From positions 326,903 to 390,902 of the forward strand of contig CAZXEC010000001.1 in the NCBI GenBank assembly GCA_964639595.1: a stretch of DNA of 64,000 bases, in the 5' to 3' direction. Origin of the DNA: an uncultured Gammaproteobacteria bacterium (GTDB lineage Bacteria > Patescibacteriota > Microgenomatia > CAZXEC01). Numbering within the stretch: the first letter of the stretch is position 1; each line of letters begins with the position of its first letter. The notes beneath the pieces are model-generated. The model had not been told where the DNA came from. It ran no database searches and saw only the letters and a program-made list of their open reading frames with translations. Below are positions 13,003 to 15,910 of this stretch, one piece after another. The translations under genes and the position numbers were made by a program.

Positions 13003-13857
13003 ATGATTTCTATTATTGTCAGTACTAAAAATGAAGAAAAAAACCTGGAGAGGCTGCTTGCCAGTATTAAAAACCAGACCTACCAGGATTGGGAAGTTAT
13101 AGTGGTGGATAATAATTCTTCTGATCAAACCAAAGCAATTGCCCAGAAGTACACCCCTTTGGTTTTCAATTATGGTCCGGAAAGATCGGCCCAGAGAAAT
13201 TTTGGAGCAAAACAAGCCAGAGGCGAGTACGTCTTAATTTTAGATGCTGATATGGAACTGGAGGAAAATGTTTTGGCAGAGTGTGCAGAGGTAGTTGGCT
13301 CCGATAAATCCCGATTTAATCGGGATAAAATCGGAGTTGACAAAACTTCTACCTTAAAAGCCCTGATTGTTCCGGAAAGGTCGACATCGCAAAATTTTTG
13401 GGGCCGCTGCAAAGCGTACGAAAGGTCATTTTATGTGGGAGACGAGACCATTGAGGCGGCCCGTTTTTTCAACAGGCAAATTTTTGACCAACTGGGTGGT
13501 TATGACACTGCCATGACCGGGCCGGAAGATTATGACCTGTCGTATCGGGTCAGGCAAAAATATCAGATAGGGAGAATCGGCTCTTTTATCATTCATCATG
13601 AAGGAGCGCCTAGTTTATGGCAATTGATGAAGAAAAAGTTTTATTATGCTAAACATGCCAAGGCCTATTACGCAAAATACCCTGGTTTAAGATTATCCCA
13701 GGGCAACCTGCTGCTGCGTCCGGCTTTTATTAGAGGATGGATGAAACTGATTTCTCATCCGGTCTTGACCCTCGGTCTGGTGATCATGCGTAGTTGCGAG
13801 ACAGCAGGAGCCCTGGCGGGGTTTTTGCTAAGTGGTACAGTTAAGATGAAGAATTAA
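13003..13857 (+). CDS. Glycosyltransferase family 2
   Basis: ISIIVSTKNEEKNL..VIVVDNNSSD and a DAD (DXD) motif. Confidence 0.75.
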   Translation: MISIIVSTKNEEKNLERLLASIKNQTYQDWEVIVVDNNSSDQTKAIAQKYTPLVFNYGPERSAQRNFGAKQARGEYVLILDADMELEENVLAECAEVVGSDKSRFNRDKIGVDKTSTLKALIVPERSTSQNFWGRCKAYERSFYVGDETIEAARFFNRQIFDQLGGYDTAMTGPEDYDLSYRVRQKYQIGRIGSFIIHHEGAPSLWQLMKKKFYYAKHAKAYYAKYPGLRLSQGNLLLRPAFIRGWMKLISHPVLTLGLVIMRSCETAGALAGFLLSGTVKMKN

Positions 13858-14785
13858 GGAATTGTCTCAGTAATTGTCTCCTGAAGGTACTCGTATCATG
13901 GGGTACTAGCGGTGCGCTGGCTATTTCACCATCGTACTCGACGACAAATCGGGTCCATTCGTCAGCCGGCACTTCTCCATCTGGCCAAGCTAGCAGATCT
14001 TCAATTGGTACCGCCAGCATGACACTATTTTCTTTATGGTCAACAGCCTTTTTCCATGATTCAATCAGAACACTTGGGTCTGCTACTACTTCTGTGACAT
14101 GGATCCAGCAAGTATAGGCAAAGGGTTTTTCAGCGCCGATGGCCAGCAATCTGGTGGTGCCTGCTTTGGGCTCCAGACCAAACTCTTCCTTCAGACCTCG
14201 ATGAACCGTAGCAAAAGAACTGGCATCTTCAGGCTCCATTTGCTCCTCGAAGGAGAGAGAATATCTGCCTGGATGAAAATCTTGCCCTTGGGCCCGTAAG
14301 GAGATAATAACACTACGCTGGTATCGGTCGAAAATAGCTTCTTGGAATAGCACAATATTATGGGTAGAAATTCCCACCGGCACTTCTGTTTGCCTGAATC
14401 TGGTAATTTCTTCCCGGCTGCGCATATGCAAATCAGGGGCTGCCTGATCAATACCCCTGATGGTAAAGTAGTCGCTTATGCCCAGTGTAACTCTAAGATG
14501 ATCGGGTGTGGCGGCGATGCTTCTGACTGTGACTTTGGGGTCATTCCAGACATTGGGTCCTGTTCTTTCTTGGGTTTTGTTAAAAGCTTGGGCCAAACCC
14601 TGCCTCATCCATTCTGGCGCCTGGGCTACCAGTTCCGGGTGGCCGGAGACGGTCTTTGAATCTGGGCTTTGAAAAAATTCTACTTGTTCGGAAGATAAAC
14701 CCTGAGGCCAGGCAGCAATCTCGATGGTGGTGCCGATTTCCCTGAAAGGGTATTCCGGACGGTGACCTAAATCCTCTCTTGTCAT
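13841..14785 (-). CDS. Hypothetical protein, compositionally atypical (GC ~50%); possible degenerate Nudix box
   Basis: A 314 aa ORF fills an otherwise gene-free gap, with ATG at 14785 and a TATAAT -10 upstream on the minus strand. RGLKEEFGL resembles the Nudix REUxEExGU, but the preceding spacing is inexact. No other recognisable motifs. Confidence 0.45.
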   Translation of the reverse strand: MTREDLGHRPEYPFREIGTTIEIAAWPQGLSSEQVEFFQSPDSKTVSGHPELVAQAPEWMRQGLAQAFNKTQERTGPNVWNDPKVTVRSIAATPDHLRVTLGISDYFTIRGIDQAAPDLHMRSREEITRFRQTEVPVGISTHNIVLFQEAIFDRYQRSVIISLRAQGQDFHPGRYSLSFEEQMEPEDASSFATVHRGLKEEFGLEPKAGTTRLLAIGAEKPFAYTCWIHVTEVVADPSVLIESWKKAVDHKENSVMLAVPIEDLLAWPDGEVPADEWTRFVVEYDGEIASAPLVPHDTSTFRRQLLRQFLNSSS

Positions 14786-14818
14786 ACAAACGGCATTCTA
14801 ACATTATAGGTTTTGCAT

Positions 14819-14845
14819 GTCAACCCCGACCTAATCGGGGTTGAC
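14819..14845. promoter_or_regulatory. Perfect 11-bp inverted repeat (GTCAACCCCGA-cctaa-TCGGGGTTGAC) in a divergent intergenic region; candidate operator
   Basis: Read directly from the sequence. It lies between the divergent starts at 14785 (minus) and 14897 (plus). No T-run follows, so it is not an intrinsic terminator. Its outward ends read TTGAC. Confidence 0.4.
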
Positions 14846-14856
14846 TCATCCGTAGG

Positions 14857-14891
14857 TTGCAGATTCTGCCAGTTTTTGTTAGCATAGGGGA
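14857..14891 (+). promoter_or_regulatory. Putative sigma70-like promoter and Shine-Dalgarno for fcl
   Basis: TTGCAG at 14857..14862, a 17-nt spacer, TAGCAT at 14880..14885, then AGGGGA 5 nt before the ATG at 14897. Confidence 0.3.
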
Positions 14892-14896
14892 CATTG

Positions 14897-15910
14897 ATGG
14901 CAAAGAAAAAAGGCTTCTGGACAGGTAAAAGAGTGCTGGTGACCGGCGGTACTGGCTTTGTGGGATATCACCTCTTGCAGCACCTGTTAAAAAAAGACGT
15001 CAAATCAATTACCATTCCCAGATCAGCCAGTTGTGATTTGCGATTGTTGGAGAATTGTCAAAAAGCAGTAGCAGGTCAAGATATTGTGATTCATCTGGCA
15101 GGCATTGTGGGCGGGATTGGCTATAACAGGAACTACCCAGGTTCGATGTTTTATGACAACCTGATGATAGGGACGCAGCTGATGGAAGAAGCTAGGAAGG
15201 CAGGGGTGGAGAAATTTGTGGCCATGGGCACTATCTGTTGCTATCCTAAGTTGACTCATGTTCCTTTCCGCGAAGATGATTTGTGGAACGGCTATCCAGA
15301 GGAAACTAATGCTGCGTATGGTCTGGCTAAAAAAATGCTGTTGGTGCAATCTGAAGCCTACAGGCAAGAATATGGCTTTAACTCGATTTTCTTACTGCCG
15401 GTTAACTTGTATGGGCCTGGTGACAATTTTGATCCTGCTTCATCTCATGTTATTCCAGCCTTGGTCAGAAAAGCTTATGAGGCAAAGCTTGGTAATGTGC
15501 CCCATCTGGAAGTATGGGGGACAGGCCGTGCCACCCGCGAGTTTTTATATGTAGAAGATGCGGCCAAAGGTATTATGCTGGCAACTGAAAAATATAACAA
15601 GTCACAACCGGTCAATCTGGGGGCAGGATTTGAGATCTCCATTAAAAACCTGACCCAGCTGATATGTAAAATAATTAGTTTTAAGGGCAAGATAGTTTGG
15701 GATACGTCCAAACCGGATGGCCAGCCCAGACGGATGCTTGATGTATCGAGGGCAGAGGCAGAATTCGGCTTTAGATCCAACACCAGTTTCGAGCAAGGAC
15801 TTAAAAAATTGATCAGCTGGTATATTAGAAATAAAAAACAACTGGACGAGCAGGGTCATAATTTGTTGACTCGCCATATCAAAAAAAACGCCAGACTACG
15901 TTTCCTCTAA
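14897..15910 (+). CDS. fcl: GDP-L-fucose synthase (GDP-4-keto-6-deoxy-D-mannose 3,5-epimerase/4-reductase)
   Basis: [37 protein letters not shown] and [16 protein letters not shown] align closely with E. coli Fcl/WcaG. The start is set at the ATG following the listed TTG. The GC content is elevated. Confidence 0.85.

Follow-up and report, generated by a model that had tools for sequence, protein, structure and literature searches.

The window analysed here, a 64-kb stretch of contig CAZXEC010000001.1 (positions 326,903 to 390,902), contains, on the minus strand at 13841-14785, an open reading frame (ORF) for a protein of 314 amino acids (aa). This ORF is divergent from a gene on the plus strand (14894-15910, 338 aa) for a short-chain dehydrogenase/reductase (SDR) of the GDP-L-fucose synthase family (fcl), from which it is separated by 108 bp. 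Judged by profile comparison and a predicted structure, the 314-aa protein has a Nudix fold, is remotely related to human NUDT22 and is a bacterial member of the NUDT22 branch. We infer that it is catalytically competent, as well as the class of its substrates and its physiological role, and hold with moderate confidence that it most likely is a metal (Mg)-dependent pyrophosphatase of nucleoside diphosphate (NDP) sugars, as a stand-alone member of this branch. The protein is 100% identical to the NCBI entry 'hypothetical protein HY388_00895 [Candidatus Daviesbacteria bacterium]'. Daviesbacteria are part of the Patescibacteria/Microgenomates group and thus of the Candidate Phyla Radiation (CPR). 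An earlier note on this DNA had placed the two divergent genes correctly and had pointed to the sequence RGLKEEFGL, which is present at residues 196-204.

The ORF had no match in Pfam, NCBIfam (E ≤ 1) or PADLOC. Against the PDB, phmmer yielded one marginal match, Arabidopsis NUDT11 (9nxm), with an E-value of 0.0015 over residues 135-224 including RGLKEEFGL. A word-indexed protein search returned two homologues from the single protein and six from a profile. To define the family, HMMER was run exhaustively against 1.84 billion cluster representatives: 34 clusters reached E ≤ 1e-10, and 61 proteins were found at the looser threshold of E ≤ 1e-3. The 34 representatives are mostly about 290-330 aa long, with alignments that span the greater part of the sequence. 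This is a genuine family, although a rare and unannotated one. Conservation was taken from a family alignment of 35 sequences. K84, P136, G138, F170, G173, E180, Q182, E201, Y224, H296 and R302 are conserved in at least 90% of them, and most members also retain E181, D187 and E200. The ORF is a real gene under purifying selection, with a ratio of non-synonymous to synonymous substitution rates (dN/dS) of about 0.20 in comparison with its orthologue in the related locus L001. The value for the adjoining gene of a family 2 glycosyltransferase (GT2) is comparable, at 0.18.

An AlphaFold2 model was calculated from the 35-sequence alignment and reached a predicted local distance difference test (pLDDT) of 93.4 and a predicted template modelling score (pTM) of 0.91. 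With two sequences only, the pLDDT was 35.7 and the model unusable. When the model was compared with the PDB by Foldseek, the six best matches were all human NUDT22 (including 5lou, 5lor, 5r50 and 5lf9), with E-values of 4.4e-11 to 2.8e-10, a TM-score on the query (TMq) of 0.53-0.63 and on the target (TMt) of up to 0.67. The alignments comprised 281-328 columns and covered both domains. Other Nudix structures (NUDT11, NUDT7, NrtR, NUDT16 and NUDT15) matched the C-terminal half only with a TMq of about 0.3. In the model, residues ~133-265 also match viral Nudix proteins and form the alpha/beta/alpha arrangement of the Nudix fold. The earlier suspicion of a Nudix protein next to fcl is thus borne out by model and Foldseek search, with RGLKEEFGL as the Nudix helix.

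The relation to NUDT22 was also found by comparison of profiles. With hhalign, the profile of the 35 family sequences aligned with that of 14 vertebrate NUDT22 sequences at 97.7% probability and an E-value of 1.6e-12 over 233 columns (residues 26-280 of the ORF). With human NUDT22 alone, whose sequence was confirmed against PDB 5lf9, the E-value was 4.7e-5. Sequence alone misses NUDT22 unless a NUDT22 profile is used: the family profile found nothing at E ≤ 1 among the PDB sequences and NUDT7 only at an E-value of about 1.2. Several motifs are shared. P-K84-V-T-V of the family corresponds to P-K60-F-R-L of human NUDT22, and L-G-I-S-D-Y106-F-T-I-R-G to L-G-L-T-S-Y87-R-D-F-L-G. In the latter case hhalign paired LGISDYFTIRG with LGLTSYRDFLGT of NUDT22, and [ST]-x-Y is common to both (residues 104-106 and 85-87, respectively). 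Further downstream, P136-x-G138 corresponds to P120-x-G122, R-G197-L-K-E200-E201-F-G-L to Q-E189-I-C-D192-E193-V-N-L and D249-H-K-E252 to E244-A-H-E247.

The 314-aa protein can be divided into three parts. The N-terminal domain (residues ~1-132; 14390-14785, minus strand), delimited by predicted secondary structure, matches the N-terminal domain of NUDT22 and holds K84 as well as G-I-S-D-Y-F-T-I-R-G (102-111). It is followed by the Nudix-fold domain (residues ~133-265; 13991-14389, minus strand), which was delimited by the phmmer match to NUDT11 and the Foldseek matches to Nudix structures, and by a C-terminal extension (residues 266-314; 13841-13990, minus strand) with the conserved H296 and R302. 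A variant Nudix box at residues 173-204 (14174-14269, minus strand) was assigned by conservation, the modelled helix 190-202 and the NUDT22 alignment. It reads G173-R-Y-S-L-S-F-E180-E181-Q-M-E184-P-E-D187-(x8)-R196-G197-L-K-E200-E201-F-G203-L204. The spacing G173-x6-E180-x15-R196-G197 is longer than in the canonical G-x5-E-x7-R-E-U-x-E-E-x-G-U, and the Glu after the Arg is missing. The signature of the family is the strand F-E-E-Q-M-E-P-x-D together with the helix R-G-x-x-E-E.

Human NUDT22 and the 314-aa protein are alike in length (303 and 314 aa) and, according to the model, in architecture, namely an N-terminal domain followed by a Nudix fold, with a TM-score of about 0.6 over the full length (5lf9, 5lor, 5lou). 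Both have a non-canonical Nudix box that is missed by the Pfam NUDIX model: human NUDT22 had no Pfam match, and the 314-aa ORF was not matched by PF00293 at its gathering score. PF00293 weakly matched five of the 35 family members (best E-value 0.0014). The common positions are the Lys, [ST]-x-Y, P-x-G, two acidic residues of the Nudix helix, kept as E200/E201 in the bacterial protein, and the downstream D/E-x-x-E. However, identity is only 13-17%. P-G-G-H-P-E-P of NUDT22 stands where the bacterial family has S-F-E180-E181-Q-M-E184-P-x-D187, the loop before the helix is 10-15 residues longer in NUDT22, and the bacterial family, found here in a CPR bacterium, has its own C-terminal H-P-T...W-R motif. 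The best direct sequence matches to the Nudix-box region of the ORF are CoA-type Nudix pyrophosphatases (NUDT7 and Arabidopsis NUDT11), which share the extended loop between strand and Nudix helix. They match the Nudix domain only and differ by an intact RE..EE box and the lack of an N-terminal domain of the NUDT22 type.

Among the human Nudix proteins, NUDT22 is an outlier that 'lacks a conventional NUDIX box' (PMC5688067). It hydrolyses UDP-glucose to UMP and glucose-1-phosphate (PMC10101856). In some reptile gene models (P0159 and P0187), NUDT22 was found fused to a 2'-phosphotransferase domain (PF01885, TRPT1-like). NUDT22 and TRPT1-like genes are neighbours in vertebrates and, therefore, these fusions are probably a read-through of the gene models. 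Human NUDT22 also acts on UDP-galactose. Its N-terminal domain is reported to bind the UDP moiety, and its fold is said to be unique to NUDT22.

As an NDP-sugar pyrophosphatase, the 314-aa protein would combine an N-terminal domain corresponding to the nucleotide-binding one of NUDT22 with a Nudix-fold domain carrying the non-canonical box. It would hydrolyse the pyrophosphate bond of an NDP-sugar in a metal-dependent manner and release a nucleoside monophosphate (NMP) and a sugar-1-phosphate. The putative metal site would consist of the helix pair E200/E201 and the strand motif F-E180-E181-Q-M-E-P-x-D187, the latter replacing the missing first glutamate of REUxEE (G197 in the ORF). The conservation of E180 and E201 in at least 90% of the members and of E181, D187 and E200 in most would argue for an active metal site that is re-wired. 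The ORF would be transcribed from its own promoter, divergently from the glycan operon headed by fcl. Where nucleotide synthesis is limited, as in a CPR cell, the enzyme might trim surplus or dead-end NDP-sugars, and the nucleotide would go back to the salvage pool.

Several points weigh against this activity. The first Glu of REUxEE is mostly Gly in the family, while NUDT22 retains Glu189 at this position, and inactive Nudix-like binding proteins, too, show a conserved Gly in place of a metal ligand. The substrate specificity of NUDT22 is not transferable since identity is only 13-16%. The adjacency to fcl is limited to three related loci, and L003, L005 and L011 offer no informative context. 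Finally, the module is fused to TIR, SIR2, PNP and EAD7 domains in other bacteria, which points to NAD- or ADP-ribose-type substrates at least there.

A search for related loci with a sub-alignment of the family found one in the GTDB representatives and two in JGI metagenomes. The arrangement of GT2 gene, ORF and fcl is kept in three Daviesbacteria-type loci, namely the window, L001 and L002. In the window, the GT2 gene (13003-13857, plus strand; Pfam) is convergent with the 314-aa ORF, and their 3' ends overlap by 17 bp. Identities to L001 are 88% for the SDR and 76% for the ORF, and those to L002 are 75% and approx. 40%, respectively. Elsewhere, the family has other neighbours. The tie to fcl is therefore restricted to a lineage, and the specific link between the two genes that the earlier note had drawn does not hold for the family. 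In L014, the family gene is divergent from a gene for an 825-aa SDR-methyltransferase-GT2 fusion that is followed by a GT2 and another SDR gene, and in L015 an SDR gene lies 2.3 kb from it; the SDRs of both loci are not fcl orthologues (22-24% identity). L013 has an OTCase-fold gene and two sugar carbamoyltransferases, one of them 49% identical to that of the window. The family gene adjoins genes for dNK (deoxynucleoside kinase), HAD (haloacid dehalogenase), two thymidylate kinases and TK (thymidine kinase) in L004, for AdoHcy (S-adenosylhomocysteine) hydrolase and a PfkB kinase in L009 and for Maf in L007. A 348-aa distant relative with 24% identity is encoded in L016 (ORMF010564691.1, metagenome; 4794-5840) between ftsZ and ileS, in the housekeeping setting murG-ftsQ-ftsA-ftsZ-[gene]-ileS-ftsW of cell division and peptidoglycan synthesis. 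The recurring themes are pathways that consume nucleotide sugars and the salvage of nucleosides and nucleotides, and both would fit an enzyme that turns NDP-sugars into NMP.

The distant relatives from the HMMER search (E-values of 4e-9 to 1e-3) are larger proteins. In these, the module is C-terminal to a partner domain and keeps the signature S-F-E-E-Q...R-G-x-x-E-E. The partners are PNP_UDP_1 (P0036), EAD7 (P0038), TIR_2 (P0044), SIR2_2 (P0045), Metallophos, which is calcineurin-like (P0056), and a helix-turn-helix (HTH) with a canonical NUDIX domain (P0037). The match reaches into the N-terminal domain in P0036, P0038 and P0044 and covers the Nudix half in P0037, P0045 and P0056, in the case of P0045 and P0056 together with the C-terminal extension. 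Several other carriers of 520-540 aa among P0036-P0062 have no Pfam domain. Such fusion architectures are typical of nucleotide-centred conflict systems. Nudix domains have been proposed to act in these systems as effectors on NAD+/ADP-ribose (PMC7159879). With the same signature in all these fusions, the 314-aa protein could, as the main alternative, be a Nudix protein for a nucleotide signal or a derivative of ADP-ribose or NAD, related to conflict systems, and the stand-alone copy of the CPR bacterium would degrade such a nucleotide and not a sugar donor. This is unlikely: no defence-system model of PADLOC matches the family, for which single members gave only two weak matches (E-values of 0.005-0.02), one to the model of a restriction enzyme and one to that of a homing endonuclease. 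The stand-alone contexts are without recognisable defence genes and show glycan, salvage, cell-division or housekeeping genes instead, and the closest characterised relative acts on UDP-sugars.

A catalytically dead, Nudix-like protein that binds a ligand or regulates, comparable to NrtR or TIRR/NUDT16L1, is similarly improbable. Its task would be to sense a nucleotide or an NDP-sugar and to modulate the operon or the enzymes next to it. It is true that the canonical Nudix box is broken (G-x6-E-x15-R, and most members have Gly in place of the first Glu of REUxEE), and NrtR, AraR and TIRR are also found among the Nudix matches of Foldseek. However, a DNA-binding domain is absent, the acidic cluster of E180, E201, E181, D187 and E200 is typical of an active metal site, and NUDT22 is active in spite of its own non-canonical box.

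A regulatory role could also draw on the divergent promoter region, in which a palindrome might serve as operator. A strong, near-consensus candidate for a sigma-70-like promoter of the ORF was located by consensus match only at 14795-14823 (minus strand; TTGACA-17-TAGAAT with extended TG), and its TAGAAT block is conserved in L001. The -10 box ends 9 nt before the ATG of the ORF (14785) and no Shine-Dalgarno sequence is present. This short distance suggests a leaderless transcript. The perfect palindrome GTCAACCCCGA-CCTAA-TCGGGGTTGAC at 14819-14845 (no strand) overlaps the -35 box of this promoter and could act as operator. It is one copy of a palindromic repeat with the core CCCGA-N5-TCGGG and the full form GTCAACCCCGA-N5-TCGGGGTTGAC. 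Three exact copies of the core are present in the window (13310-13324, 14819-14845 and 39908-39922), compared to 0.67 expected even with one mismatch, and two lie in the intergenic region of L001 (9913-9927 and 9940-9954). The copy at 13310 is located inside the GT2 gene, where it coincides with an in-frame insertion of 14 aa (SDKSRFNRDKIGVD). The orthologues in L001 and L002 lack this insertion, which resembles the in-frame insertions by Rickettsia palindromic elements.

The earlier note had compared the pair to colanic-acid clusters, where the Nudix protein Gmm/WcaH is encoded next to fcl. As an analogue of Gmm/WcaH dedicated to the GDP-sugar branch, the 314-aa protein would hydrolyse GDP-mannose or GDP-fucose, regulate the flux through fcl and perhaps even cleave at the C1 of the sugar; for both the analogy and the cleavage at C1, the chances appear low. 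A Nudix hydrolase of NDP-sugars beside fcl is a reasonable assumption, as the closest characterised relative is a nucleotide-sugar hydrolase, and the ORF adjoins fcl divergently in three syntenic loci. E. coli Gmm (WcaH/NudD; 1rya) has a Nudix fold, too, and is encoded beside fcl in a polysaccharide cluster. Its helix (...FERLTMAELGL, checked against PDB 1rya) is also without Glu after the Arg, as is evident from RLTMAELGL compared to RGLKEEFGL. The resemblance to Gmm/WcaH itself, on the other hand, was not sustained. The 314-aa protein has no NCBIfam match of any kind, hhalign against Gmm gave a probability of 0.3% and an E-value of 0.23 with only the helix of 30 residues aligned, and no Gmm structure was among the 50 best Foldseek matches listed. 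Gmm is a single domain of ~160 aa, while the two-domain architecture of the 314-aa protein is that of NUDT22. Gmm is also part of a gmd-fcl-gmm-manC block, whereas the window has neither gmd nor manC, and family members outside the three syntenic loci are not located beside fcl. The 314-aa protein may have a role comparable to that of Gmm but is no homologue of it.

In the earlier note, both genes were taken to be a separate acquisition with approximately 45-55% GC against 38% elsewhere. The elevation is real but smaller, and it is essentially restricted to the ORF. The GC content is 48.7% for the ORF, 44.6% for fcl and 40.8% for the window on average. Of the 46 genes compared, the 314-aa ORF has the highest value (z=2.9). 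In contrast, fcl (z=1.4) is on par with its neighbours GT2 (43.7%) and GT1 (44.5%). Sliding windows of 945 or 1017 bp never exceeded 49.6%, and the whole stretch of 13-17 kb lies three to four points above the window mean. By codon position, the ORF deviates in GC1 (0.575, z=2.6) and GC2 (0.435, z=2.8) and less in GC3 (0.451, z=1.4), which equals that of the flanking genes. Family members in seven other loci from different hosts have a GC1 of 0.535-0.586 and a GC2 of 0.41-0.45, while their GC3 follows the host (0.29-0.46). The GC excess of the ORF thus originates from the amino-acid composition and not from foreign DNA, because it recurs in GC1 and GC2 throughout the family and GC3 tracks the host. 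A horizontally acquired island of two genes is very unlikely, given this compositional origin, the synteny that persists in L001 and L002 down to approx. 40% identity, the scans for tRNA and Rfam elements of the 64-kb window, which were empty, the lack of an integrase flanking the pair and the position of fcl at the start of a long operon of co-directional genes. The two genes have long resided in the lineage and are not a recently acquired island. The original finding is thereby deflated to an ordinary fcl gene at the head of a large glycan operon, with neither a foreign island nor a gmm homologue.

The fcl-like SDR aligns over its whole length with GDP-L-fucose synthases of known structure (8du0/7ll6 with 3.7e-68 and the E. 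coli enzyme, 1bws, with 1.7e-60), while the match to GDP-mannose 3,5-epimerase is weaker (1e-30), so that the SDR is nearer to true GDP-L-fucose synthases (Fcl/GMER). All catalytic residues are present: T113/C115, Y142/K146 and H185 match S107/C109, Y136/K140 and H179 of the E. coli enzyme, which form the catalytic Ser/Thr-Tyr-Lys triad and the epimerisation pair Cys109/His179. The NCBIfam model GDPFucSynFcl (NF047922) matched over 306 of 308 positions with 284.9 bits, which is under its equivalog cutoff of 500. The ATG at 14897 is the likely start of translation because a Shine-Dalgarno-like run GGGG is located 6 nt upstream, in agreement with the length of the L001 orthologue of 337 aa.

The earlier statement that gmd is missing was upheld. 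No gmd was found in the window by Pfam on all 46 distinct ORFs with 150 aa or more and NCBIfam on three SDRs, nor in the 21 kb of the syntenic L001; manC or another NTP_transferase was not present in the window, either. The fcl-like SDR itself had no listed NCBIfam match to gmd. The two other SDRs were considered as candidates and rejected, since that at 6806-7831 is HpnA-like and that at 21801-23228 PglF/PseB-like in NCBIfam, both without a listed gmd match. In L001, genes for an NTP_transferase, a GmhB-like HAD phosphatase, a SIS_2 protein (GmhA-like) and a fusion of PfkB and a cytidylyltransferase-like domain (HldE-like) were found at 17937-20942, immediately past a transaldolase gene; their counterpart would fall just left of position 1 of the window. 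Taken together, these genes make up a pathway for NDP-heptose at the border of the glycan cluster. Given the absence of gmd, this pathway could conceivably offer the fcl-like enzyme an alternative GDP-sugar substrate, and the enzyme may act on a different GDP-4-keto sugar.

The fcl-like gene heads a co-directional glycan operon and is followed by genes for a GT1, a methyltransferase, a carbamoyltransferase, a GT2 and onward. In fact, the entire window is a glycan-biosynthesis region. It encodes PMT/GT-C-type transferases, GT2, GT4, many S-adenosylmethionine-dependent methyltransferases, a flippase-like protein, two NodU/CmcH-type carbamoyltransferases, a PglF-like dehydratase, two DegT aminotransferases and a nucleotide-sugar dehydrogenase of the UDP-glucose/GDP-mannose dehydrogenase family. 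Six very large ORFs (890-1047 aa) follow one another at 34865-54439. F5/8 type C (discoidin) domains were detected in three of them and an AftD-like N-terminal GT-C domain in one, while two were Pfam-negative. The six proteins may be paralogues that act at the surface or in glycan handling. In comparison with L001 (11757-15695), the window has extra genes at 4595-10778 between the gene of a 551-aa unknown protein and the PMT/GT2 genes, namely for a methyltransferase, an Orn/DAP/Arg-type pyridoxal phosphate-dependent decarboxylase, the HpnA-like SDR, a second PMT_2 transferase of 717 aa and a 249-aa methyltransferase. They are a lineage-specific expansion of the glycan cluster.

Prokaryotic relatives of NUDT22 were not reported in the literature searched. 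The evolutionary context of NUDT22 now includes a conserved bacterial sister family that has an invariant acidic motif of its own. This family supplies natural active-site variants as well as a candidate enzyme for the recycling of NDP-sugars in salvage-dependent CPR bacteria, and the fusions to TIR, SIR2 and PNP hint at a use of the module in anti-phage or conflict systems. We tentatively consider, as a possibility to which we give rather little weight, that the module S-F-E-E-Q-M-E-P-x-D / R-G-x-x-E-E defines an undescribed prokaryotic sister clade of NUDT22 with a re-wired metal site and, perhaps, altered chemistry or substrate. It would then have two uses. In CPR and other small-genome bacteria it would be a stand-alone housekeeping enzyme that feeds NDP-sugars into the nucleotide salvage pool, and in conflict systems it would serve as sensor or effector domain in fusions with TIR, SIR2, PNP, EAD7 or phosphoesterase domains. 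If this proves true, a bacterial origin of the animal NUDT22 would be suggested.

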